A stretch of 60,465 nucleotides of DNA, filler included, from Sphacelaria rigidula (lineage: Eukaryota): assembly GCA_964200075.2 (NCBI GenBank). It is 8 parts of 8 records of this genome, joined end to end, with 100 filler letters (N's around TTAATTAATTAA, not from the genome) between each part and the next. Parts side by side here need not be neighbours in the genome. Positions count along the whole stretch, not along the records: positions 7,572 to 15,042 come from CAXNAA020014776.1; 7 more parts are not named here. One strand, given 5' to 3'. The translations under genes and the position numbers were made by a program. Numbering within the stretch: position 1 is the stretch's first letter; every line of letters starts with the position of its first letter. The notes under the pieces were generated by a model. That model did no database searches. It saw only the letters and a program-made list of their open reading frames with translations, and was not told the DNA's origin. Of the stretch, positions 1 through 16,984 are shown piece after piece.

Positions 1-294
1 GTGTCGTCCTTATTTGTGGGTTTGCTTGAGCGTTTCACCAGTGAGCACGGGCCCCGTTGGAGGGGGGAGAGGGGGGGAGAGGGAGGGGGTATTACAACGG
101 AGGTACAATTGTGACGCGCGATGATACAGCACATACCCTTCTTTTCACGAGAGAAGACGGCTCATGCGTGCGTGAGAACCCTTCTGGTAACACATGAATC
201 GCTGTGCATGTTCGTCGAACCTTCTTGTTCCATGTACAGCGGGTGTGCTCAATCTCGGATTTGTAGGGATGCGAAGTCAATGGTCTCATGCCTA

Positions 295-841
295 CAGTAG
301 TGGGCGATCTATCTATTCATTTTGTGGCATTTTGTGATTTTTTCGTAATTGGTGATTTTCTTGGGCTCTTTTCGCTTGCCACCGCTGATCGCGTTGGGAA
401 CCTAAAGATATTTGTATCCGCTTCATATTGCAAAAACAAAATCCTTTGCTCTCAATATTGAGTGACGTACGGGCTGACCGGTCATCGGGGGTCCTGCCAC
501 GTTTCAGCCCAGATTCTTACCCTTCGATATTTTCGGTCGATCGAGCCTGTTTCGATCATATTTGTGAAGAAATGTACAGCTTTATTTTTCCGAAATTATA
601 CCTATTCATTGCACTAGAGCCGAAAAACTGTGTTTAACGGTCAATAACATCCTCCTGAAAAACGGGGGTTTCACTCGTATTGCCCGATAACACCAACTAA
701 TACTGACTGAGGCACTGTGTTTCGTGGATGATTCTTTATTGCACCAAAATTTACTGACGCTAGCAGTTTCGAGTCCTATCGAAGAGTAGTACGCAAGGAA
801 AACCCCCGAACACCCCTGAATAGTTAGACCGCCCACTACTG
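295..841. mobile_element. Tc1/mariner-type MITE (547 bp), TA target-site duplication (TSD)
   Basis: Terminal inverted repeats (TIRs) CAGTAGTGGGCGATCTATCTATTCA / TGAATAGTTAGACCGCCCACTACTG, flanked by TA at 293-294 and 842-843. It interrupts a short repeat whose empty form is at about 44835-44895 (reverse strand). Confidence 0.8.
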
Positions 842-3800
842 TACGGCATGCAAGATCATGAGTACACCCCCTTCCCTTCACATAATATCGACAGAGACGG
901 TAAACTGCGTGTGAAGACTCGTACGTTTCATGTCGCTACGCCAAATAAACAAATTTGGGAGCCAACTTATTCTGGCGTATTCGCAAACGGAACAGTAATA
1001 CGCGAATGAGAAAGTAATACTTTTAGGACAAAACCTCGGCGACCAGCTTTGATCATCGATGTTGCCAACATGTTGCCGCATATTGGCAACTTTGAACGCA
1101 GTCAGAAAGTGGGAATTTTCAAAGCTCAGTCAAGTGCATACAGACCTGGCAGCTAGACGACTGTCGATCTTGGACGCGGGTGTTTCCATGCGCGATGTGT
1201 CCTTACTCCGACCTGCCGTTGGTGCAACCCTTGACTTGGACGAGACCCTGTGCGATGTTTTTCGGATTTTCACGAGAAAACAATAAACACAAATCGTTTC
1301 ATGTAGTGCTATATATATATATATATATATATATTATCGAAAGCGTGGAACACTCGACCAAGTTTAGTACTCCGAAATATTCACGGTAAAAAGGGAATAT
1401 GTGGCATATGTAGTAGCATCGTTTTAATTTGAACGTCCGGTCTGATGATGCTTGCGTTGCTTCAGGTGTAGTATTACAGAACTATATAAAAAATTGTAGT
1501 TATGTATGTGTAAAATAACATCACTTCTCATGGGACCGAAAATTATACTCTGACCCAAGTGCATAGTTGGCCCTTCGGCAAAGTTGCTGCATACGGAGAA
1601 GCGGTCAGGCAGATATTTCTAGACTTGCTGCGCTCTCCGAGAGGATCCAAGCACACTTTAACAATCTTCGATGCGAGCACTGTTTGACGTCGATACTTAG
1701 AAGAAACAAAAAACAAACTTTCGAAATCGAAATTTCCTTTCCGGATCACAGAACTGCATGTAAAGATGCATGCACTTTCGTCGATTGGGGAAGGTTTGCC
1801 CGATTTGGGACGTTTTTGTTGTTGTTGACCTAGAGTCAAAGCGCACACATCAAAAACTGCCAAGGTGTGTCGGGATCCTCCCAGAGAGTAGACCGAGTAA
1901 TTCCAAGGAGGCATTATCCGCCTGGCCGTTTTTGCTCGCGAAAAACGATGGCAAGAGAGTAAAATTAGCACTTTACTATTAGTTTGTTTTTTTGGTCTCA
2001 TGAATCGTTCTGATATATATGTACATGTATCATTTCACATGTTTCACCACTTTTGCCGAGTTTTCTCTGGCGACAAAGCATTTTTTCCCGCGCTTTCTAA
2101 AGCAGCGCACTAAGAAGGCTCAGCGGTACATTACCGTTCAGGTTTGGGTGTCACCTGACACCTGTGGCGCATGTTCTGGCCACCGAAAGTCGCTTTAAGT
2201 GGCCCGTTTTCGCGGGGTGTCGATCCCGAACGACAAAAGCCATTTCAAGAGAACGGAAAACTTGAAACAAGAACCCGAACTACAAAAGCCTGTTGAAGAT
2301 CATGGAAATCTTCGAACATGATTACTTTTGGCGGGGTATTTTTTCCCAGTGCTTCTCTTTGTCGCGTTTTCGTTAATTTGGGAGCGCACGAACACACCGG
2401 TTATGCCGTCAATGTCACGCGAACATGAAAGCAAAGCAGTTGAAAAAAATTGAACATTGTCTTGGCCTTGGTCAGCAGCAAGCGCGAGACCGTGCAATGA
2501 GCCGTGGGCAAGTTGAACAAGGCACAGCAGCACGGCAGCACAGGAATATTTTGCCGCAAACAACAATCACTCTGTCTTAAAAAAGGGCCCGGTGATGTAG
2601 GAGCCACAGTGATGTACACAGAACATGCCAAGAATGTTCCATGCATTCCAATATTTCGGGAAGTGTCTCCCGCGATCATGTCGTTGTGGCACGAGAGCTA
2701 CTTCGCACTCTGGCACCTCGGAAATACCACACATGTCCTACGCCGGCGGTTCCGCCGTCGGCCTACGTCCGAATTCCCATATTTCCGAACGGTATCCGAT
2801 AACACATGTGATGTTTTGTACAGCCACAATCACTACTGTACATTATGATACACCATCCTCTCTTAACCATATATTCTCGACTTGTGTCACCCCAGAGAGG
2901 CCCGTACCGACCTCCCGAAGGGGAACCTTGTATATGTATATCATTTCCGGGTATCGTTTTCAGACAAAATACGTGAGATGAAATGGACAACATAATCTAT
3001 GGATAACAACATCGCAAACAAAAAACGTGTATGGCGTGTGCTAGATTCCTGCCCTCCGCGGACCACCTTTGATATAAATGTATGCATATATGATGCATAT
3101 CATATCATGTCTCATACCGTACAAATTACAACATATCGCACCACATTATAGATCAACAGCATGACAATACTGTACAAGCACCCCTTAAACAATTGTGAGA
3201 GATTGAAATGGTAGGCCAGGTCGATGACACTAAAAGGTTGCGTTACAATCTGTTTCGATTCTAAACGTGTTTTTTCCATGCACGTTTCTGTAAATAGATA
3301 TACGTATGTTCTTTGAACGACGAAATCATGACATTCACGTACTTGGTGAATCTGATCCGGCGTTTCTGCAGCACCTAAAAGCATGAGATATGGAATGGTC
3401 AGGCAAACATGTTTCGCCTCTCTGAAGCAGAAACGAGGGGCTCCCTTCAAAGCGACTCTCCAGCTTCAAGTTCAGCACTACCACCGTAGCATCTTTATTT
3501 TCCATCATCCCACTTTTTTCATGTCTTTTTGGACATCTAGTATTCAAACTTTGAACAAAATATTTTCGGTTGGACGAGATGTTTTACAGGTTTTTCGGTT
3601 ACCACGACTCATTACGGTTTCTGTATTTTTCCAAGAGACACGAGTTCACGACGCAAGTTTCGACAAAAGAAAAATAATTTACGATCAATTTTGAAGAAGA
3701 GACGGACTTGAGGGTCTTTGGAGATCCTACGGTTCTTAATCTTCGATCTTTTCACTCGACCAAACCGACCCGAATCTATCTAATGAAGAATTATATGTCT

Positions 3801-5208
3801 TCATTTTTCTCTTGTTTCTCGATATCCATTGCGCTATCACCAAAAAAGGGGTGTTTTGGGATCATATGCGGTCGACAAGCCCCTCTCGATGAACAGGGTT
3901 TTACTCCGTATCATTCGAACAACACAAAATTGGGAAATGTAGTCTGAGGACGACCTACCTCTTTTTCCAACAACTATCGACTCTCTTATTCTGAAGTGAA
4001 GGTGACGAATTGTCCGTGAGAGAACCCCGATTGAGTGAATACCATGCTGTAGGGGTTGATTACTCTATCTCGTTGGTCGTGATGTAGGGATTCAACGAAA
4101 ACACACGCGCTTGCATTTCAGAACAAAGGAGAAAGCAACACACCGGCCTGCAAAAAAGTCTCGTATCTAACTCCTGCTCTGCTCCAACTGATTTGTCGCA
4201 CTTACACATATAAAACATTATGCCCATTAATTCACTGTCGGCCTCGGACCCTGCAAACCAGAAGTTCTAGGTGTTTCCGTTTTGGACAGCCGAAAAGGAA
4301 CACGAATACACCGAGACTGGGGGATGACGGTAGTTTTCGTATATAATCGAGAGACCCACCATTTTTCGAATCTTAGCATTACTGCTTGCATCCTCTGTTG
4401 TCGTCCGAAATAGTACTACGACGTGCTGTCAACGGCACGCGGCATTTTTGCCCAAACACAACACGAAAGTATTCGTGCTCTCTCCCTCTCCGATACACAC
4501 ACACGCACGTACCCGAGCGTGAGACTTCCAACGCTCTTGCTGATATGCGGTAACGTCCTTCCAAACGCACCCCCCCCGCCAGTCAGATCTGTGGCGCTAG
4601 TTCCGAGAGCCGAGCCAGCTCCAGAGAGTGACGGTAATCCTGACCCTGAAGATGGCGGTAAAGGTTACATTAGGCGACGCGACGAGGGGGCCACGGTTGG
4701 TTCGTGTCGACGCTAATACTACCATGTTTTGTATGGGGAAGGGGCGCCCCACAATGTACGATGTACAGCTGATTGAGGTCGTTCTACGATAGCTTCCCCC
4801 CCCCCAAATTAGTCGCTGGTTTGGGGAAGCAAAATGTACATGTAAACTGGCATGAAAAAACCGAGCACAACGAGCGGCTGGGAAATCCCAAGCTTGGATT
4901 TGGTTTCGCCAATGTCGCCCATATGAGACGCTTCAGGCAGCCTGAAAGCCAACATCAGGCGCTGTACGATTATCTTCTTCGTGACCGTTGTGCGCTGGTT
5001 TTTTAATTTGGGGGGATAACGTGGAAAGACTCATTGATTGATTGATCGGTTGATTGATGCACATGAGTTTGTCGCCGCGCCCCCGTGGTCTCTGTCAGAA
5101 CAAAGAAAAAAGGGGTACCAGAATACACAGAATTGTCCTTGCGGTAACAGAGAATACTACTCATAGTGTAGGATCATGTGGGCTATCCAAGCAGAAACGG
5201 GACGTGTT

Positions 5209-5501
5209 GGAGGAGGAGGAGGAGGAGGAGGAGGAGGAGATGAGGGAGGTGAGTGGAGGTGAGATGAAAACGTTCGGTACTCCGGAGAATGGCAAGGGAA
5301 CGATGGCTATACTAGGAGATAGGCGGTGGTCACAACGGGCGAAACGGGAAGGGGATAGAATACGTAAAAGGTTCTTGTGTAATGTATGAAAGATACGTAA
5401 TGAGCGCCCAAATATGGGGCGTGTCCCTATTGGAGGAACGGTGCTCCGTCTCGAAAGGGATGCGTGGTCAATGGTGAAATGACCAAGGTAAGCAGCAAAT
5501 G

Positions 5502-5550
<49 letters not shown>
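5209..5550. repeat. (GAG)n and (CA)n microsatellites
   Basis: (GAG)n at about 5209-5239 and (CA)n at about 5505-5550. Confidence 0.9.
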
Positions 5551-5552
<2 letters not shown>

Positions 5553-7471
5553 CTGTGGTCGAAGTCGTAGATACAGCTAGGAACGATATAGAAAGGGATC
5601 GAGCAGGAGCGAAGATGATAGAAGGATGGCCACATACATTACGGTCGTCTAAACGCGGAGCTCGATTACTGACGGGCACAATACGAGGTTGCGGTTTCCT
5701 ATCAAACATTTTTTCATGTCGCAAAAGAGAATCTGCGTGAACACAAATCAGCACGCATACGGTGGAATATATGACTCAGTTACGGCATGCTACATAGTTC
5801 ACTTGGTTGTGATTGACAATATACTCTGGTTCAACGTACGTACAGGAATTATCGTGTTTTGTTACACCTGGGTATTATGGCCTATTCTGACGTTCGCATG
5901 AAAGTAGGCTACTGCACGATTTACCATTGCGAAAATTATGGATATCTTGTTTCTTTCTCATCTCTCCTATTTTTCTGCGTGTAGTGTTTCCCTCGGATGG
6001 CGAATGACAAAAGGGCGGCGAAGACCCTCTCGTGCCGTGATCTACTACCCTACTCTCTGACGCCCCCCCCCTCCCCATCATGAGTACACCCCCCCCCCCC
6101 ATGTTGTTGTTGATGTCGATACTATCCGATGGCGAAGATACAGGAATACCATTAATTCATGTCTTCGGAATGGCATGATACCTTTTTTTTTTATATTTCA
6201 TACACTCTACGATAAAGTTGAAAAGAAAGATCGAAATGGCATGGTACAAAAGAAACACACAACATGAACGTCAACCTGCGATGTCTCTGGCATTACCTAA
6301 GCGTTTTCGTCCCGAGGTTCCACGGGTGGCCCTCACCGCAACGGTCATTCCCGTAGATGGTATTTCCATGGTCTTGTTTGCCAGTTGATCACCCCAGTCC
6401 TGGTTCTCTGGTGGCACCTGGAAGCGGTACGCATATCCGGCTTGAATTTAATCCCTAAAGCGCGCATCATGTATGAGCCCATCTGTTGAATCGGTATTAC
6501 GTTCATTCGAAAATCGAAGGGCCGATTTCGTAATCCGTCCGCCGGGGCTTCCTTACAGTGGGTCAAATCCTACTATAAACTGCGGTCATTTTCGGAACGT
6601 TTTCGTGCGTTGATTTCTACACGCGTTTTTTTTTCGGTTCTGCTTCTGTCGCCATACCATGATATTGTGTAAGCACAACCACACACACACATTTCTCGAA
6701 TACATGGTACGCCAACCCCCCGAGGTGATGATGACGGAGTCGACGAACGTGACTGTATGCAGAACAGGGACTGCGTTAGTGGAGGACTACCGTAAACTCT
6801 TCACGTCTGACCCGTGCAGTCGTCGCAAGCTTACGAGCTTGAAATGGGAAAAATAAGTAAATAGTATCTCCGTCTGACGCCCACGTTTGTAGTTTTCTGT
6901 TCAGCAGGACGAACTTTCGGTCAGAATAGTTCCTTTGAATCTACATATGACCTCTTCAGCACCACGTGTGCAAGCTTCCTCAAGTTCGTGCCCGTGTCCT
7001 TGTTTTTCCCCGGCCGATATACCCTTGAACTTGTCACGACACGTTGCGGTTACCTGGATCATTCTTTGTTGCTTTTTCATCACTGGTCTCTTAAGGTATT
7101 CGTGATGCTGCAGCACCTTCCGCGATAATCGGTGCGTTTATGAAAAAAAGAATTTTAGAGACGCATTTTCGGTCAGCTTCTGATGAAACCAGATTCGGCA
7201 CTTCTTCAATCCTGTAAGCAATTTGTCTAATTGGTGTTGCAGCGTACGTATGCATGTTTGTGGTATCCTGGCCGCATCGAGTTTCGGAGGATATGCATGT
7301 GCGATGCCCGTTGAAAAGGTAGGAAACAACACGTGCCTATCTATGAACATCTGCTGAAATACGGTGGATGACGGGGTACATCACCCCCCCCCCCCCCCCC
7401 CCGCCGCCCCGCCCCCCCGCCGCCCCCCCGCTCCCCCCCCCCCCCCCCCCCCTCCCCGACGCCCCCTCACC

Positions 7472-7571
7472 NNNNNNNNNNNNNNNNNNNNNNNNNNNNN
7501 NNNNNNNNNNNNNNNTTAATTAATTAANNNNNNNNNNNNNNNNNNNNNNNNNNNNNNNNNNNNNNNNNNNN
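7472..7571. other. Artificial 100-bp contig spacer (first of seven)
   Basis: 44N-TTAATTAATTAA-44N. It recurs at 15043-15142, 22614-22713, 30185-30284, 37756-37855, 45326-45425 and 52896-52995. Confidence 0.97.
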
Positions 7572-10500
7572 ACGACCAGAAAAGGTGGTCGGGAAAGCAC
7601 TGTCCACGTGGATGTCGAAGATCACGAGGTCAATGGTCATCCAATTAGGATGTTTGATTGTGCCGGCCAGGTGAGACATTCTGCTCCTATCGGCACGTTC
7701 ACGTGATGTGTCGATGCATTTTTCCATGTGGAGTCACTGTCCCTGATGTTCTTGGGCTCACATCGCGATCAGCTATGGCCGAGTTACCGTCGATGCCTCG
7801 GTCTTGACGGTAAGAAGCAGGAGCCCACGGGCGAATCCGTTGAAGTTCGGTATCATGTCGAGAACGCATCACTCCTGCTAAGTCATTGCCACAAAGGCTT
7901 CCGCCCTCAAACACCGAATGGTGTACGGGATGAATCTGTATCCGGTAGTTCGATTCACTACATTCGGCATTCACCTGACCCTCTCCTTGCGTCTTTGATC
8001 GTCCACTGTCACCATTCGAAAGGTTGCCTACTATGGACTGCTTCAGCTGTTCCTCACCCCTCGTTCTTTATACCTCTTGGTATGGGATGCGGAGAAAGCC
8101 TGCCAGATGAACGAGTTGGACCTTGAAGACCTTGGCATTGCTCCGTGGCTGAGGTATTTGACTTTCCGTGTGCCGGACGCAGACGTGGTTCTTGTGGGTA
8201 ACAAGTGGGACCGTGTCGAAAAGGCCAAGCGCGGAGTAGTGCTTGACGTGGAGCATGAGAGTCGCGAAATACTAGGTTCCTGGAGAGCGAGGGCAGACGG
8301 ATATCGGCCTGGCAGACTGACACTGGAAGAAGGCGTCAGTTGTGTGAGCTGTGCGTGGTCCGTCCCAGGCGTACTGGCATCGATTGGTCTGAGAACGGGC
8401 TGGCCCTGCGACAAGAGCATGCCGGGGCTTTTTCATCGCATTGTGCATATGCCCAGCCAAGTCGGCGATAGTACGGCTGCAGTCGGTGACACGAGGGCTG
8501 TTACGATGTGTATTCCGCAGAGCTATCAATGGGCGCTAGAGATGCTCGAGGAGCTGGCGTTATCCAGTAGGTGAGGTCATTGCGGCCATGTCCATGTCGC
8601 AACTCCGTGCAATTCATGCGATCGTGAAAATATTTCAGTAAACATGCACTGACACGAAGCTTCTCTCGTTCTTGTTGTGGTTTTCGACATCGCGCAACAG
8701 CCTCGAATGCACCTACCCATGCAACTGTGGATGGTGCATTTTTGTGTTGATCTGTCGCATCTGATGGATTCACGGAGTTGTCACCTTGACTGACTGCACC
8801 CGTGTTTCATGTAGGCGTGGGGCCGAACAGCAAACCCCCGGCATCATACCCCAAGGCGCCACAATCTCCGGCATCACTAGAGAGGACTTGGATATAAAGT
8901 GGCAAAAGAAGGTGGATGAGCTGATGGAAGATGGAATGAAGGTTGAAGACCCAGAAGCGGCCATGTCCGGTGCCATCTTGATCAGGTGAGTTCGATGTCG
9001 GCTTCCGTGGATTTGGGGGGTGAAATCAGGGAAAGTGACGATTTCGGTGAGCGCTGTAAGCTCACAGAGTCGGTGAAATGCGCTAAAGAAGTATCTTCCG
9101 AGATTGAGGGCCCGGCTTCGTGTCCTGCAATCCCACTGTCTGCAGGAAGTGGGAGGGAGGACTGGTCGAGTACGGCACCTACATCTTTCTCGACGTTGAA
9201 TGGTTTGCCAGAGTTCTGGACCCATTGTTCAGTCACAAGCGTGATTCAAAGCACAAGGTTAGTCTTGGGGGCAAGAGGGTGAAGAACGAAGCGAGCTTGG
9301 ACCGACTGAACAGAGATCATATTTTGGAGCGGAGACTCGCTGAAGAGTTGTGGGGCACAGATGTCGTGCAGGAACTCCTCTCGGCTTTGGAAAGTGCAGG
9401 ACTGGCGTTTCCCTTGCCGGGAGACGACAACGAGGGTTTGGCTATTCCTCTACGCATGGGCACAGAACACCCACGAGGCTTTGATTCGAGGCTTGAGGAC
9501 GCATGCCGAGCCGGGGAACACGATCTTGTGCTCAAAGTTAAATGCGTGTTCAGAGCAGGGTTGCCCCCTGGCTTCGTTGAGCGTCTCCTTGTGCGGTGCT
9601 GCCACTTGGGTTTTCCGCACCCCGTCTGGCGATACGGAGCTCTGATAGTAGGTGAACGGTTGTTCTCACTGAGCCTAGAGTACTCCGAGGAGCAGAAGAC
9701 TCTTACAGTAGAGGTGCACGGAAACTGTAACGAGGTCCATGCATGGGCAACTCTGTCGAAGGTGCTCTCCGTCACGATCAAGATGCTGTCGGAGTTCCCT
9801 GGTTTACCGTGCAATCCCGCGTTCCTCTGCCCGCGACACGACGAAGAGGAAAACTGGATGCCCATCGTTGAAAATGTGAGCAAAATATAATGTGGGTTTG
9901 TTGGAAAGTCCAAATTTCACTCTTGTCCAAAATACGTTGAAAGCGAACGAGTATGATCCAAATGACGTTGAATGCCGGCCAAAAAAAAAAAGCATGATGC
10001 GAATCGTGAATTGTACTGGTACGTGTTCGGTTATCAAATGTAGTGGGTACACACCACTGGGTTTCAGCGGAACGGACACGAGGATATCTACCAGTCTAAG
10101 CAGCGGCTTATCTACAATGCCCACTTCGTTCACACCCACCGCGCGTGCTGTCGCGGTGGTAGGCACGGCCTGGATCCCGTCTGGTCAAGGAAGGCGACGT
10201 CTGTAGAGCTTGTCCTGATCGTGAGGCGGGCAAGGAGTTTCTGGCAGTTGCTCTACAGGTGGTGGAATTCTCAGACAAGGAGTTCTTTGATGAACAACTT
10301 CGTGAGCAATTTGCCGAAAAGGCCGAGGAGGTGGATCTCGAGGGTCGTGTACCATGGCCGAGAAGCAACCGCGAGGTGGGGGGTCATCTGACTCATACAG
10401 ATGCTATCATGTCCCAGCGTTATGCAGTGCAAAATGTCCGTTTTTACATGTCCTTCACACCCCGAAATTGAAGGTTTGCTCACGCCCACGCGCATCGTCT

Positions 10501-11819
10501 CTTTCCCCGCCTCGCAACCAAAACGATTTTGCACAGATTTCGACTGATCAGGGATCCGTTCGTATCACTCGGAGGAACCAGGTATGTTGAACGTTCTCAA
10601 ATCACGTGCCGTATCACGCACGTACGAGCGAGTTGAAGTTGCAAGCATGAAGTAGGGGCCTTTCGGTCGCGTGAAATTGCAACCACGTACTGCGCAGCGA
10701 GAAAATGGCGCCTTGCCATGAAGGGATTATAGTCTTCGTCTAGAGTACGAGACCTTGATGCTTCCAAGATGTGAGCACGCTCACGCCTACATGAATCATA
10801 TAATAGTTGGACCTTGATGCTTCCAAGATGACCACGCTCACGCCTACATGAATCATATAATAGTTGAACCTTGATGCTTCCAACGTGTAAGCCCGCCCAC
10901 GCCTGCATCACTCGTGTGTTGCCGTTGTCACAACCAAACTGTTTCTGCACAGATTCCTGCTGGTCCACCACCAAACGAGGCCGAAGCACGCAGCGAGGTA
11001 TGATCGCTGTTGTGGTACCACGTACGGTACGAGGAATTCAATGATATACCTGCTGCTTACGGCATATATTTGTGCAACAGATGTCCGAATTTATTTCAAC
11101 TGCTGTTACTCCATGCAGGCAAATCATATTTCAATATGACACCCAACTTTGCCCGCACGTGGTCTGGGTGAACCCCGAGCACGGCGTTGTTCCTCCCGTT
11201 TCTGTCCTAACCATTTAGCTGTACTCCCGTAGCTCGAGTCGGTTGACTCTACCGCCGAAAGCACACTGGAAGGTGATAACAATCATCGCGTGGAATAAAC
11301 GCGCCTCATTAGAGCAATGCTACGAAAGGGATGCACATTTTTCGCGAAGTTTTGTCTGGTTCAGGAGCTCCCAACGATTCTAGACGCATAAGAATATGGG
11401 TCGAGGCATCTCCGTTTCCAGATTTATTCGGGATATCCCCCGCACATTGGAATAGTAATCCTGGCGTACTCTCGCATATTTTTACAGGTGGTGTTTAGGA
11501 TGAGATAGATGGCTCCCAACTTACAAAATATTATTGTACCCCTATCGTATCACTCATTGAGCAGTCGTGAATCCATTTGTTCAACATACAGGTCCGGACG
11601 CAACGGCATGAGGAGGTGAAGAAATGGCTGGTCGTATGCAGTGGGTCCTGTCTCTCCGTCTTTGCGGCCTTCCTTGGAACGGATAGTGGCGGCCCTTTTT
11701 TGTGGGGAGTGTTTCTGGGCTCTGGCATGTTGTTGTTGGGGGTGCTGTTCGTTTTGATTGTCAGAGAGGGGGAAACGACGAGGGCTGAAAACGAACGCCG
11801 AGGTGACGACCGTGTATAG
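7572..11819 (+). CDS. ROCO-family GTPase (ROC-COR), 5'-truncated, multi-exon, with putative C-terminal 2-TM tail
   Basis: Phase-compatible GT-AG exons: <7572-7670 (STVHVDVEDHEVNGHPIRMFDCAGQ, switch I/G3), 8023-8570 (VAYYGLLQLFLTPRSLYLLVWD...VVLVGNKWD, G4), 8815-8985, 9146-9875 (COR: IFLDVEWFARVLDPLF, LPPGFVERLLVR, WRYGALI), 10163-10375, 10537-10581, 10953-10997 and 11592-11819 (two hydrophobic segments, TAG stop). The P-loop and any LRRs lie before the contig start. The last three exons are less certain than the ROC-COR exons. Confidence 0.9.
10752..10910. repeat. Intronic tandem repeat, 57-59 bp unit, about 2.5 copies
   Basis: ACCTTGATGCTTCCAA...CACGCCT units start at 10752, 10811 and 10868. 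Confidence 0.85.
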
Positions 11820-13122
11820 ATTCTGCTACACTAATATGTAAGATGAAGGACAGCTCTCTCGCGTTGTCGCAACAGTAATGGATTGTAGCAGTGTTTGGCA
11901 TGGCTTTCCGCAGCATCTCCTCAGATGAGAGTGCCGAATGGCTCATGTGAGGGTGAGTACTACACGCGAGAATTCATCAAATGTAAGCAATCGGAGAAGG
12001 GTGGACGTGAGGTAGCAATAAGGGATGGGGGAGTTTTACGGCCAGGTGAAGACGTCATCAGGCAAGGAAGAGGAGAGAGTTCGCTCAATTGATTTGATTG
12101 ATGAATGATCTCACATTAGCTAATTGCAACAATCCAGCCCGTGGTCAGGGCAAGAAGCAAGAGCAGAAGAAGAGCAGGAGAGGAGTAGACAACATCCCAA
12201 CTCATCAGAAACAGGAAAAATTTAGAGAAGGATGAAAAATGATATAAATATTGAACGCAAATGTAGAGAAAGGAAAAGAGATGGATGAGGAGATGAAAAC
12301 GAAACAAACACAACGTTCCATGTATCTGGCGTAGACAATGATCGACGGTATGATGGGTGGGACGTCACGGCGTCCCAGCACTATCCTCGGTAGCATTAGC
12401 CGGTCGACAAAATCGTATGCCTTCGTGCGGTGGACAAATCATTCCATGGCCTTGACTTTCGACCGAGGAAAAGAACAGGAGAAAGTCTGAAGTGTAGGCA
12501 ATCGCCAAACGATGCGCAGGACTCGTTACAATCGGAAATGTCAACTCTTGGAGGGTGTCGCAGTGCAATGCCCACCCCACACCACCTCCCACCGATACTG
12601 GGGGAGATAGTCAAACTCGGCGATCTTACATCATTAAATAATGAGCGCAGGATGTCCTGGACTACGAGCTGTACCAGCCAAGAGTGGGCGCGAAACTCGC
12701 CCAGGCGATGCACGTCGAGACATGAGGAGTTGGACGGTGAAATTTTAGCAGCAGCGTTTTATGATCAAGATATACAAGATCACGTGAGCATCGACGTATT
12801 CATTGGAAATAAGGAAGTTATGAGCTGGGCCAGCCTAAATACAGATTTGAGCACTAGAAGCAACTCGTGACACAGACGGATTGGTTCGTGATCCGTATAT
12901 CTTTCTCTCAGGGTTACCTGATGATTATCTGGGGCAAAAATACAAATGTGCCGGTGGTGGTGGTCCGTCCCTTTTCAGTCGACGGGGCAAACCCTTGTAC
13001 TTTTGAAAATCAAGTGCCCTTCCCATTGAAACCCACCCCATTGAACATCTACAGGCACTGTTCCGAAGCACACGAACTTTCACGTCAGTTGGCCACCCCT
13101 GTGCTGAGTATGACCGTGGGCT

Positions 13123-14345
13123 GTGAGGCCTGCTGCTGCTGTGATTGCAGTGCGTCGCAGGCGGCCATGCGACCTTCTCCGTTCAATCCAAATGCGGCGA
13201 CGGCCATCTACCAAAACCTATGAGCGTTTCAAATACTGCAAGGCTTTCGAAACGGACGACCCATCATTATATTCGATCCCCAGCTGGCGGCTGCGCTTCC
13301 CTACGTTCCAACCTCCAACGACGGTGTGTCTGAAAGATCACACACACACAGACAAGAACCTCGGAATACTGGTAGTCGCCGGGGGGAACAGAAATCATTC
13401 TTCGCCACTACTCCTGTTGCTTCCAACAAGGCATCAGAACTCATCGCACTCGGTAGTCCTCGTCGTCAAACACGGCACTCGGCAGTCGGCGGTCGCTCAT
13501 TCACGTCTAGGCCTTCCCGAGAGAGTTTACGTCGCCTGCTGCTGCTGTGATTGCAATGCGGCGCAGCCGGCCAAATGACCCTCTCCGTTCAATCACACTT
13601 CGACTATGGCCGTCTACCACAACCTATGAGCGTTTCGAAAACTGCAAGGGTTTCGAAACGGACGACCTACCATCACATTCGATCCCCAGCTGGCGGCTGC
13701 GCTTCCTTACGTGCCAACCTCCAACGACGGTGTGTCGGAGAGATCACACACATACGGACAAAAACTTCGGAATACAAGATCTCCGCCAATACCCAACCAA
13801 GATGAACGTGTGACACTTCTAACGAAACATCTTGTTCATTAGCATTACATTAATACCATTGCTGTTGCTTCCATTGCCTACGCGGGTACAAATCGTGGCA
13901 AAAACGTTGTAGGGGCTACGCTACATGAAATTCGTATACCAGGTAGAACCTCTATTCGAAATTTCTTATTATTTCCGAACCTGTCTTTAGTCCGAGAAGA
14001 TCAACCATGTTTTCAAACACACCGGCGTCGACTTCCACCAAGCTCACAACACCTACAGGCGTGCCGAGCATGCCGGACATCGTGCGGGTACTTCTCCTAC
14101 TTCTCGCTGTCACAACGAGGGTGCGAAATTCAAATGCAAACAACGGCGAAATACCCCGGTCACGCGGCAGACCGTCTGTCCGTAGTCGCCGGGGGGAACA
14201 GAGATCGTTCTTCGCCACTACTCCTGTTGCTTCCAACGAGGCACCAGAACTTATCGCACTCGGTGGTCCTCGTCGTCGTCTAACACGGCACTCTGTCGGC
14301 GATCGCCCATCTACGTCTACGCCTCTCACCCGAGAGAGTTTACGT
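13123..14345. repeat. Mosaic local duplications
   Basis: About 13125-13370 resembles 13535-13775, and about 13372-13532 resembles 14182-14345. Confidence 0.8.
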
Positions 14346-15511
14346 CTGGAGCGAATGTCTCTCATGGTTCCGCAGCAAGATTCTTCAAACACTGGTCAGC
14401 GTCAGCTAGAGAGTCAACAAAACGCCAGGGATCGCCGAAACGCTAACCGTCGCACAAGGCGACAAACACTGAGGTATTTTATCCTTCATACGTTCATTCA
14501 TTTGATATTGTACACAGCACACGCAGACGTACAGGTCTTCAGTTTACAGAATATTGATCCTACGAAATTTCCAAAATGTTTCCAAAATTCCAACTGAAAA
14601 ATTCCCTCCACATCCTCCGATGTTCCACTTGCCTGTTCATCAATCACAGCGATGCCGACCGCGACAGAGCCAACGATACGCGTAGACAGCAGAGAGCTGC
14701 CATGAGGTATGTCATTCCTCTGTTCATAATCAAATATTTTTAATGCTCGATTACACACATGCACTGCTGCTAAATTAGCTGTATTCTACCATGATGAGCT
14801 CTTTTTTTTTTGCTCGATCTACAGTTGATGTGTTTTGAGGCGACAAACATTGAGGTATTTTATCCTTCAAACGTTCATTCATTTGATATTGTACACAGCA
14901 CGCGCAGACGTACATGTCTTCAGTTTACACAATATTGATCCTACGAAATTTCCAAAATGTTTCCAAAATTCCAACTGAAAAATTCCCTCCACATCCTCCG
15001 ATGTTCCACTTGCCTGTTCATCAATCACAGCGATGCCGACCGNNNNNNNNNNNNNNNNNNNNNNNNNNNNNNNNNNNNNNNNNNNNTTAATTAATTAANN
15101 NNNNNNNNNNNNNNNNNNNNNNNNNNNNNNNNNNNNNNNNNNAATAATAATCGTTTGGTTCACCCTGTGTTCTACAAACACAATTACGCCCCCTGCGCGG
15201 GGGGGGGGGGGGGGGGGGGGGGGGGCATCCCGTATCCCACCTCCGAATGTTGTCTTGGAAAAATGTAAATTCAGAACCCTCTACTCGATCGAGTGCGTGA
15301 TACAACTACCTCGGTCACTGCTCAGGGAAGGAGTATGATCACTTCTATATCCACGCTGTTATTCCCGGCGTCGGCACAGATTCAAATACATACCATTCTC
15401 GGGTGCCAGTATGACATACACACACTACAGTATGGCATAGCATACAGTGACACATAGAATTACCTAAAAACTAACCGGGGCCGTGTAACACCTGCACCAA
15501 AACCGTAACAC

Positions 15512-15850: not shown

Positions 15851-16984
15851 CTCAGCGATTTAGGCGTTCAGGATTCCTCCCATGCCGAAGTGAATTGCAG
15901 TCAGAAGTCCTTTACGCATACGGTCCTCGGTGCTGTACGGAGGGAGCTCCAAGGAGAAGAAGCAGGTGTGACTCACCTAGGCGACAAGCAATATAGCGCA
16001 CGCAGGAGGGCAACCTCAATGGACGGTCATTTGGGGACAAAGTTGCCACATTCCACGAATGGGTCGTATTTCGAACACAGTGTTCGAGCTTCACGGTACA
16101 AAATACAAACACAAACCAAACTGTGTATGGGATCACCGTGTATCAGAGTGGTGAGAGTGAGTGTCAGGCAGTACACCGACTAGAGACGATGAGCTCATTA
16201 CTGTACAAGACAAGACAAATGATGAGTGGAGAAGAACACAAGTTGGTCTGATGCACTTTGAAGAACTGTTACCGGCATTGTGTATCGGAACTGATCATAT
16301 TGAAGCTGCGGTGATGTTGTAAATTCATTGGCAATCGACATCGACCAATACAAACTGGGTCCGGCAAAAAATAAACAAGATCCATCCACCAGACCCTGTT
16401 CATCTTAGTTTTGCCTCCGTGGTCGAGGTGATTCGGTGTCATTCACGACGAGCTGGGCCAGCCTAAAAACGGATTTAAGCTCTAAAAGCAATATCTCATC
16501 GACACNNNNNNNNNNGTGATCCGCATATCGTATTAATCGTCTAATCAAGGGGAAGGTGCACATCTGCTCAAAAGTTTGGGCTCATATTTCCTCGTTGATT
16601 AAACCACATGTCTAGTGATTCCTATACCTAAGGGAGATAGCGCCAATACTAAAATATCTATGAAACTCCCGATCGATGTATTTAGCGGATAGCGACGAAT
16701 TTTGGTGTGGAGAACCACAAAAGAGTGCCGAAAAAAAAAAAAGGACGTTCCATTTTTTTTCATAGGGTAGGGCGTTCTCGTGATATATGTATGGTCTTTA
16801 CCATAGTAGAACGCCCTAAGCCAGTGAAAAAAATTTGAAAAAGACAACCTGAACCACTTTTTTTTGTTAATTATGCCTTAGAGAGTGCCCACACAAAATT
16901 TCAATACACAAAAACCAAACGTGGGCCGGGGAGTGGCCTGCGAAATACTGTTCCGAATTTCGACCGACCCCGTTTTTGGAAGGC

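Follow-up and report, generated by a model that had tools for sequence, protein, structure and literature searches.

The window analysed is a 60,465-nucleotide stretch of DNA from Sphacelaria rigidula. Between 7575 and 11819 on its plus strand lies, with good support, a brown-algal gene for a ROCO GTPase; the gene is expressed, and its 3' half is what the window shows. Eight exons join there into one frame of 2076 nt, which in spliced translation has 691 open codons and a single, terminal stop, and the borders of all introns read GT..AG.

Exons and splicing of the gene's 3' half

The first visible exon (7575-7670; translation, tblastn and its joint to 8023) encodes a partial Roc domain in which the DxxG motif (FDCAGQ) can be read. 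The second half of Roc, with the NKxD motif (GNKWD), and the start of COR-A lie in the exon 8023-8570, assigned by the Pfam Roc profile, tblastn and joints. COR-A occupies the exon 8815-8985 (tblastn, joints on both sides) and passes into COR-B in the exon 9146-9875 (Pfam COR-B, homologue conservation), near the end of which a CPRH motif is encoded (9828-9839). A 213-nt exon in phase 0-0 (10163-10375; joint, conservation and AF2) contributes a CRAC motif (10202-10213) together with the last two helices of COR-B. It is followed by two micro-exons of 45 nt, each of 15 codons in phase 0-0. Together they make up a disordered linker. The first (10537-10581) was placed by its joint, by collinearity with the homologous fragment P0033 and by pLDDT; the second (10953-10997) was placed by loose contig ends and the joint from 10997 to 11592. 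Within the intron between them, Tandem Repeats Finder reported 2.3 copies of a 57-nt tandem repeat (10751-10883). The terminal exon (11592-11819; hydropathy, AF2, relatives) encodes both hydrophobic helices and ends in a TAG stop at 11817-11819. A 3' untranslated region on the same strand extends from 11820 at least to 12100, as contig cover in the runs X1, X2 and X3 continues to that position.

Splicing was followed in transcript-like contigs of these three runs, which belong to one study and whose label as RNA is a guess rather than a matter of record. The joints from 7670 to 8023 and from 8570 to 8815 were present in all three, the joint from 8985 to 9146 in X1 and X2, with only loose ends behind 8986 in X3. 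Exon end 9875 is directly followed by GTGAGC and an AG acceptor lies just upstream of 10163; two contigs in each run connect these two borders. The joint from 10375 to 10537 was found in 3, 2 and 3 contigs of X1, X2 and X3, and that from 10997 to 11592 in 1, 2 and 1. For the micro-exon pair, 10581 to 10953, only loose ends were seen in X1-X3, in which the letters behind 10581 match those that open the exon at 10953, and the letters before 10950 match those that close the exon finishing at 10581. None of the four tail joints occurred in run X7, whose kind is unrecorded and which was taken as DNA owing to its even cover of exons and introns. Unspliced contigs also run across 9875 (9847-10072 in X2, 9847-10192 in X3) at far lower contig depth, and minor alternative joints lead from 9875 to 10044 (X2) and to 10537 (X1). 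With the protein fragment P0033 (264 aa) the spliced model shares 87% identity, and the two are collinear over all four junctions. The four tail junctions predicted in a first-pass annotation are thus borne out, three by joints in X1-X3 and the fourth by matching loose ends, and with the open frame and the collinear fragment its gene model proved right.

The Roc-COR core and a conserved Cys/His cluster

A Roc domain is directly followed by COR, the arrangement that marks the ROCO family. The half-domain of Roc in the window gave a weak Pfam match (E 0.013, 16 bits), whereas the homologue P0007, which tblastn places at about 60% identity to the window, matched Roc with 49.4 bits, the cut-off being 27. 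COR-B was matched in the exon 9146-9875 with E 9.2e-6 and 26 bits, just below its 27-bit cut-off. The exon 8023-8570 was 61% identical to P0007 and P0013 (tblastn). Searching with the COR exon retrieved 32 brown-algal relatives at E<=1e-3, the majority of which have LRR and Roc Pfam domains; the best database matches to this exon are 58-68% identical. In brown-algal LRR-ROCOs the LRRs form an N-terminal array that repeated exons encode. Several database relatives are truncated or read into introns.

In sequence searches, solved ROCO chains were matched by the Roc domain of P0007 only, COR and tail remaining unmatched, and P0003, which contains COR and the Cys/His cluster, gave 0 PDB chains at E<=10 with phmmer. 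By structure, the AF2 model of P0007 superposed on LRRK1 (8e05_A; Z 21.8, rmsd 4.6, 476 residues), LRRK2 (8fo9_A; Z 21.4) and Chlorobium tepidum Roco (3dpu_A; Z 18.0). Over Roc-COR, the matches to these three proteins span Z 17.7-21.8 and 436-476 residues; the COR-only chain 3dpt_A gave Z 14.9, and Foldseek against solved ROCO proteins reached E values down to 7.7e-16. The P0007 model thus shares the tandem Roc-COR fold of LRRK1, LRRK2 and C. tepidum Roco, but the window gene continues after COR with a disordered linker and a hydrophobic hairpin in place of a kinase or WD40 domain. That no kinase follows COR had been noted in the first-pass annotation, and the last exons indeed match no Pfam family at E<=1.

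The same annotation had described a Zn-ribbon-like motif after COR. Its four ligands stand: the pattern C-P-x-H ... C-x-x-C is nearly invariant in the homologue alignment A3, its positions being kept in 30, 30, 29 and 29 of 32 homologues. Its placement does not. In the P0007 model the cluster lies at residues 579-610 and the superposition ranges end at 626-647, beyond it, so that the cluster sits, as judged from this model, within the stretch superposing on COR-B of LRRK1, LRRK2 and C. tepidum Roco and is not an added domain. In the AF2 model of P0033 the segment has a pLDDT of about 90 and forms short strands, with helices in the part encoded by the exon 10163-10375. Zinc-ribbon Pfam families gave no match at E<=1, and in the ESM Atlas the nearest feature clusters to residues 70-165 were partly COR-B, with scores of 0.78-0.87 that serve as leads only. 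The cluster is probably a lineage-specific feature where COR-B ends, and we infer that it may bind zinc as a structural site. A literature search for a COR-domain zinc site or for ROCO membrane anchors returned nothing relevant beyond PMC3341825 and PMC7159879, and such a putative site in COR-B is not described in the papers searched.

Linker and two-helix tail

Between COR-B and the tail, AF2 modelled both P0033 and P0007 with a pLDDT below 50, and the flanks of the two micro-exons are similar in alignment. The linker is a flexible stretch of variable length built from duplicated small in-frame exons.

The terminal exon encodes a basic pre-membrane stretch, a hydrophobic segment of 19 residues (11625-11681), a turn of 6 residues (11682-11699), a second hydrophobic segment of 21 residues (11700-11762) and a charged end of 18 residues. 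The Kyte-Doolittle mean over 19 residues exceeds 1.6 at residues 637-638, borderline for segment 1, and at 659-667 for segment 2 (peak 2.59); helix 1 of the window copy is rich in Ser, Gly and Cys. Two helices were modelled by AF2 in P0033 (194-227 and 235-263, pLDDT 71-85) as well as in P0007 (701-725 and 731-760), in keeping with the two-helix hydrophobic tail first proposed for this gene. A hydrophobic C-terminus was found in 24 of the 32 brown-algal homologues, and the two-helix tail is the normal C-terminus of this gene family. A search with the terminal exon among 1.84 billion representatives recovered relatives at E 3.6e-27 and 2.3e-18. All 11 matches of the tail at E<=1e-3 were ROCO tails or short, likely mispredicted terminal-exon fragments, and with a query of 75 residues against a database clustered at 50% identity the tail was found on no other kind of protein. 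A related tail is present in the Ectocarpus siliculosus ROCO P0027 (E 7.3e-6).

Over 25 sequences, helix 1 mostly measures 17-19 residues and helix 2 21, and 7-30 residues follow helix 2. The loop is acidic (34 basic vs 87 acidic residues) and the C-terminal flank basic (88 vs 45). The turn of most homologues contains Pro and four to six acidic residues; most also have a Glu within helix 2 and a Cys directly past it. None of these three features is present in the window copy, whose loop reads DSGGPF as against K/E-D-D-D-P-R in the homologues. Among close paralogues the identity of the hairpin is 0.54-0.58, compared with 0.64-0.73 for the globular domains; between distant paralogues it falls to 21-27%, compared with 44-57% for Roc and COR. 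A Trp-Gly at the start of helix 2 and spaced glycines are kept.

Probable membrane tethering and competing readings

We consider it likely, at a probability of about three in four, that the product consists of Roc, COR-A, COR-B, the flexible linker and a C-terminal membrane-spanning hairpin whose most likely role is that of a tether. Membrane insertion and topology are what we infer from the features of the tail. The hairpin would hold the protein at the membrane with both ends in the cytosol, so that the cytosolic face would be where the GTPase core acts, along with any N-terminal LRRs, and the short loop would lie on the opposite side. The acidic loop and the basic C-terminal flank agree with the positive-inside rule for membrane protein topology if the loop lies outside the cytosol; together with the helix lengths, these sequence features fit a bilayer-spanning hairpin with a cytosolic Roc-COR. 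Faster divergence of the hairpin between distant paralogues is as expected under looser constraints than those on the catalytic core. Against a plain anchor, helix 1 of the window copy is only borderline hydrophobic, the topology of this copy is less clear because its loop lacks the acidic cluster, and conservation among close paralogues together with the specific kept residues is more than a passive anchor needs.

A tether of this kind matches the published view. Some Ectocarpus ROCOs were described as a group in which one or two TM segments are predicted at the C-terminus, and these proteins were proposed to be probably membrane-anchored with their bulk in the cytoplasm (Zambounis et al., 2012; PMC3341825); that the hairpin arose twice was also proposed in 2012. 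With two hydrophobic segments, and two AF2 helices in the homologues P0033 and P0007, the present protein falls into this TM-anchored subgroup. It shares with the Ectocarpus proteins Roc-COR and a short post-COR region with TM segment(s) proposed as an anchor, and with P0027 a homologous tail; unlike them, it comes from another brown-algal genome and its loop is not acidic. Since a C-terminal membrane anchor was described for Ectocarpus ROCOs in 2012, the gene is an ordinary family member, and the earlier caution that TM-bearing ROCOs might already be annotated was well placed. Apparently unreported are only the micro-exon linker and the conservation of the Cys/His cluster: the text of PMC3341825 has 0 occurrences of "zinc", of "cysteine" and of "micro-exon", and the supplementary file of that paper that was searched held no ROCO-specific TM information.

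Among the alternatives, a hairpin that dips into one leaflet, or one of the lipid-droplet or ER targeting type that does not span the bilayer, is unlikely. The shortness of helix 1 (17-19 residues), its many small residues and a turn that in the window copy is uncharged save for one Asp would suit such a monotopic arrangement, but the four to six acidic residues and Pro in the turn of most homologues would be hard to bury, so that the charged loop argues against a half-buried hairpin, and a helix 2 of 21 residues is long enough for the bilayer.

The pore-type effector suggested in the first-pass annotation found no support and is improbable. In that reading, ligand sensing and COR-driven oligomerisation would gather the hairpins into an ion-conducting or lytic assembly as an immune output. 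In its favour, more than hydrophobicity is kept, namely the Trp-Gly, the spaced glycines and, in most members, an acidic loop and an intramembrane Glu, and so is the hairpin identity among close paralogues. However, neither this loop nor this Glu is left in the window copy, in distant paralogues the hairpin has diverged faster than Roc-COR, helix 2 is followed by only 7-30 residues, and no Pfam family matches the tail at E<=1. SLATT models are included in Pfam, and this search returned none of them, although short TM modules of remote kinship could escape it. Foldseek gave no match of the P0033 model at E<=0.001; the rows for CorA, ZntB and Mrs2 channels were not significant (E 1.4-3.6, prob 0.04-0.07, TM 0.14-0.18). 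A Gly-Met-Asn loop motif is the mark of CorA/Mrs2-type channels, and neither DSGGPF nor the K/E-D-D-D-P-R of the homologues contains it. A wide VIA-align search with P0033 matched residues 184-264 only, in each case to a generic antiparallel helical hairpin at Z<=9, and in the ESM Atlas the tail had no feature match and by structure resembled only generic membrane hairpins.

A precedent by analogy is provided by bacterial conflict systems, in which 2TM SLATT domains are fused to GAP1 GTPases (Kaur et al., 2020; PMC7159879). As described there, these proteins, too, have a two-TM module at the C-terminus of a GTPase and a presumed role in defence, a likeness of design only. They differ in GTPase family and kingdom, and the algal tail is without a Pfam match and has almost no cytoplasmic extension past helix 2. 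It is similarly doubtful that the hairpin is the receptor output itself, with GTP- or ligand-driven association of Roc-COR clustering the glycine-rich second helices. Helix 2 would then, in most members, present its buried Glu beside the acidic loop. Ions would pass through the assembly, or the buried charge would serve to recruit a membrane partner. If this were true, brown algae would have membrane-executing immune receptors in these ROCOs, a case of convergence with the GTPase-2TM design of bacteria.

Least probable is that this copy is a 5'-truncated or decaying paralogue whose tail is transcribed without a working receptor: the piece opens mid-exon, within Roc, at 7572 behind a spacer (7472-7571) that cuts off the P-loop and all upstream coding sequence, a search of 1-7471 for LRR, LRR-Roc linker and P-loop coding sequence was empty even at E<=5, and three features usual in the family are missing from the tail (acidic loop, Glu within the membrane, Cys beside it), but the spacer repeats every 7571 nt, which makes the missing 5' end most likely an artefact of window assembly, all 691 codons are open over eight exons, transcript contigs show splicing of every intron, and P0033 shares the variant tail at 87% identity, which suggests selection.

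For this ROCO, the analysis provides a transcript-supported model of the gene's 3' end, where small exons are often missed or misjoined by automatic predictors. The form with the putative membrane anchor is expressed and, over several genera of brown algae, is the usual one in the clade. With an LRR-GTPase that lies in the cytosol and is tied to the membrane through its hairpin, these candidate immune receptors may well act at a membrane surface.

Exon structure and splicing of the ROCO 3' half

In this window of eukaryotic DNA, the 3' half of the ROCO gene was read as eight exons with GT..AG introns at positions 7575-11819 (+), and the spliced frame of 2076 nt comprises 691 codons with a sole, terminal stop. 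A COR exon (9146-9875, +) with Cys-Pro-Arg-His at its end (9828-9839) is followed by a 213-nt exon (10163-10375, +, phase 0-0) containing Cys-Arg-Ala-Cys (10202-10213), by micro-exons 1 and 2 (10537-10581 and 10953-10997, +) and by the terminal exon (11592-11819, +). Translation of the latter gives a basic stretch, a hydrophobic segment of 19 residues (11625-11681, +), a six-residue turn, a second hydrophobic segment of 21 residues (11700-11762, +) and 18 charged residues before the TAG. All features and coordinates described for this 3' end in the first-pass annotation were recovered in the sequence.

The piece carrying the gene (7572-15042) opens partway through the Roc exon, so that the P-loop is hidden, and a search of 1-7471 with a threshold as loose as E ≤ 5 gave no coding sequence for LRRs, the LRR-Roc linker or the P-loop. 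A spacer of 44 N, TTAATTAATTAA and again 44 N recurs every 7571 nt (7472-7571, then 15043, 22614, 30185, 37756, 45326 and 52896) between pieces of ~7471 nt. This regularity suggests pieces that do not adjoin one another in the genome, and the missing 5' end may therefore be an artefact of window construction. Right before the first spacer, a long C-rich low-complexity run coding for poly-Pro (7380-7471) appears unrelated to the ROCO gene, and two short runs of 10 N are located at 16506 and 42400.

Four public sequencing runs were mapped on 7575-12100: X1, X2 and X3, which stem from one study and whose RNA label is only guessed, and X7, whose kind is not on record and which was taken as DNA because exons and introns were evenly covered. 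In X1-X3 depth was high across exons and about zero across most introns, GT..AG joints were present, and none of these ROCO splice joints was detected in X7; RNA origin is consequently the only reasonable reading of X1-X3. The four junctions proposed from the sequence were all supported in these runs. Joint 9875/10163 was found in two contigs each of X1, X2 and X3, 10375/10537 in three, two and three contigs, and 10997/11592 in one, two and one, respectively. Joint 10581/10953 is too short-sided for the joint listing and was seen via loose ends only, the letters behind 10581 being those of the exon start at 10953 and the letters before 10950 those of the exon end at 10581. Upstream, joints 7670/8023 and 8570/8815 were present in all three runs and 8985/9146 in X1 and X2, with X3 giving only loose ends behind 8986. 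As the main joints splice past 9890 and on to 11592, the main transcripts are not terminated by the TAA at 9890 and do extend to the terminal exon; unspliced and alternative forms are minor.

Position 9875 was crossed unspliced by two low-depth contigs (X2, 9847-10072; X3, 9847-10192), and two further joints, each seen in one run, had very low contig depth. Joint 9875/10537 (X1) is an in-frame skip of the 213-nt exon that would lose the CxxC and the last COR-B helices; 9875/10044 (X2) uses an upstream acceptor and leads to a shifted frame ending without the hydrophobic tail. Compared to the window, X7 harbors an additional GAA behind 9842 that adds a Glu in frame, a synonymous T>C at 10560 is shared by X7 and some of the RNA contigs, and the 3' UTR in the runs lacks 3 nt and carries an A>G change (11830-11834). 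These differences look like strain or allele variation.

The Roc-COR core and its Cys/His cluster

The Roc motifs DxxG and NKxD are readable in the window, where Pfam gave a COR-B match (E 9.2e-6, 26 bits with the cut-off at 27) and a weak Roc match covering half the domain only. The homologous database protein P0007 scored 49 bits for Roc, and its AlphaFold2 model (mean pLDDT 75) matched solved Roc-COR tandems. Foldseek matched it to LRRK1 at E 7.7e-16 and to the Roco of C. tepidum at 1e-13, and VIA-align gave Z 21.8 to LRRK1 (8e05_A; rmsd 4.6, 476 aligned), 21.4 to LRRK2 (8fo9_A), 18.0 to 3dpu_A and 14.9 to the COR-only chain 3dpt_A.

A Zn-ribbon-like motif after COR had been proposed. The conserved cluster of four Cys/His positions stood: the positions are kept in 30, 30, 29 and 29 of 32 homologues, the distant P0028-P0030 included, and are nearly invariant in a sequence alignment. 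Its placement after COR appears not to hold. The Pfam COR-B match ends just past CPxH, yet the P0007 model aligns to LRRK1, LRRK2 and CtRoco as far as model residues 626-647, so that the cluster (579-610) and its helices lie inside. The alignments give only their first and last residues, which makes the superposition of the cluster on COR-B suggestive and not exact. In the AlphaFold2 model of P0033, the best match of the terminal exon, the segment forms short strands and then two helices at a pLDDT of ~90. We read the cluster as a lineage-specific feature at the end of COR-B and not as a separate post-COR domain. Zinc binding is plausible from the conserved residues; the cluster matched no zinc-ribbon family in Pfam.

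The linker and the C-terminal hairpin

Between COR-B and the hydrophobic segments lies a linker that in the window is encoded by the two 45-nt, phase 0-0 micro-exons. It is disordered in both AlphaFold2 models (pLDDT <50) and is the least conserved part (mean pairwise identity 0.37), differing in length among homologues and in the number of short Ser/Gln-rich units. The acceptor-side and donor-side flanks of the micro-exons (10470-10620 compared to 10886-11036) are more similar than the exon interiors, which suggests that they arose by tandem duplication of an exon-plus-intron unit. The intron between them contains a 57-nt tandem repeat (10751-10883, 2.3 copies, 94% matches).

For the tail, 19-residue Kyte-Doolittle means rose above 1.6 in two places, marginally at model residues 637-638 and with a peak of 2.59 at 659-667. 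AlphaFold2 placed two helices around a 5-7 residue turn (P0033, 194-227 and 235-263; P0007, 701-725 and 731-760), and among 25 sequences helix 1 mostly measured 17-19 residues and helix 2 measured 21. Over the 25 sequences the turn is acidic (34 basic, 87 acidic residues), the C-flank behind helix 2 is basic (88 and 45) and the stretch before helix 1 mixed (57 and 52). By the positive-inside rule, the acidic turn and basic C-flank would place both hairpin ends and Roc-COR in the cytosol, with the turn on the far side.

We consider the hairpin to be a membrane anchor, with a probability of about 0.75; the cautious reading of the first-pass annotation is borne out by the predicted two-helix hairpin and by charges fitting cytosolic ends. 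A monotopic or targeting hairpin in place of a bilayer-spanning anchor appears unlikely. The bolder proposal of a pore-type effector is slightly less probable still and unsupported, as family and fold searches gave no match pointing to a pore; its published analogue, the 2TM SLATT domains fused to GAP1 GTPases of bacterial conflict systems (Kaur et al., 2020; PMC7159879), is alike in design and not in kinship.

Hairpin identity was 0.54-0.58 among close paralogues, compared to 0.64-0.73 for globular parts, and 0.21-0.27 between distant clades, compared to 0.44-0.57 for Roc and COR. Most homologues carry a Glu within helix 2 and a Cys directly after it; the Glu and the acidic cluster are missing from the window and from P0033 and P0034, which are closely related to it, and P0034 retains a Cys in the C-flank. 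On a profile of 19 tails, scores were 63.8 bits for the window and 28.7 bits for P0028 (neither reached by any of 300 shuffles), 7.2 bits for P0030 (0/300) and 9.4 bits for P0032 (1/300). Shuffle maxima for the latter three were 4.7-11.8 bits, whole-sequence shuffles being a lenient control for hydrophobic segments. Judging from paralogue identities and profile scores, the hairpin is a true sequence family, apparently under some specific packing constraints, looser than those on the catalytic core.

Distribution and origin of the putative anchor tail

Of 4611 candidates searched with the COR exon, 32 proteins matched at E ≤ 1e-3, with 42-73% identity over the aligned regions (58-68% in the 27 best matches). 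All named relatives are brown-algal (Ectocarpus species, Scytosiphon, Laminaria, Pylaiella and others), and most of the 32 harbor LRR and Roc Pfam domains. Their C-termini share the plan of the window: COR-B, CPxH ... CxxC, two helices, a stretch rich in Ser, Gln and Pro whose length varies, and two hydrophobic helices. A hydrophobic C-terminus was present in 24 of the 32 (two peaks in 20, a single merged peak in four). Of the other eight, four are records marked as partial at source (P0016, P0021, P0025, P0029) and two break off within the linker (P0003, P0031); P0024 has an odd insertion and P0022 a different end.

A search of 1.84 billion representatives with only the terminal exon gave 11 matches at E ≤ 1e-3, and the tail was not found on other kinds of protein. 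The best, the 264-residue fragment P0033, shares 87% identity with the spliced model and stays collinear with it through all four junctions, differing by two residues where 9875 joins 10163. The remaining matches are ROCO tails or short records resembling the terminal exon preceded by translated intron.

ROCOs with a proposed membrane anchor were already published in 2012. Zambounis et al., 2012 (PMC3341825) describe Ectocarpus ROCOs with one or two predicted C-terminal TM segments as possibly anchored at the C-terminus with their bulk in the cytoplasm, and the tail of the Ectocarpus siliculosus ROCO P0027 is related to that of the window. DeepTMHMM was applied to 111 brown-algal ROCOs, as stated in part of Teng et al., 2024 (PMC11378527). 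The words 'zinc' and 'cysteine' are absent from the main texts of both papers and 'micro-exon' from that of Zambounis et al., and zinc in a ROCO COR domain was not reported among the best literature matches listed. The near-invariant Cys/His cluster in COR-B and the micro-exon linker are small additions for which no earlier description was found in the papers searched.

Zambounis et al., 2012 (PMC3341825) also state, in one passage, that the C-terminal anchor may have been recruited twice. P0028, P0030 and P0032 belong to distant ROCO clades with 42-46% identity in COR, and their hairpins still score on the near-clade profile. In contrast to the two independent recruitments proposed, the tail sequences hint that the anchors of these ROCO clades share one origin.
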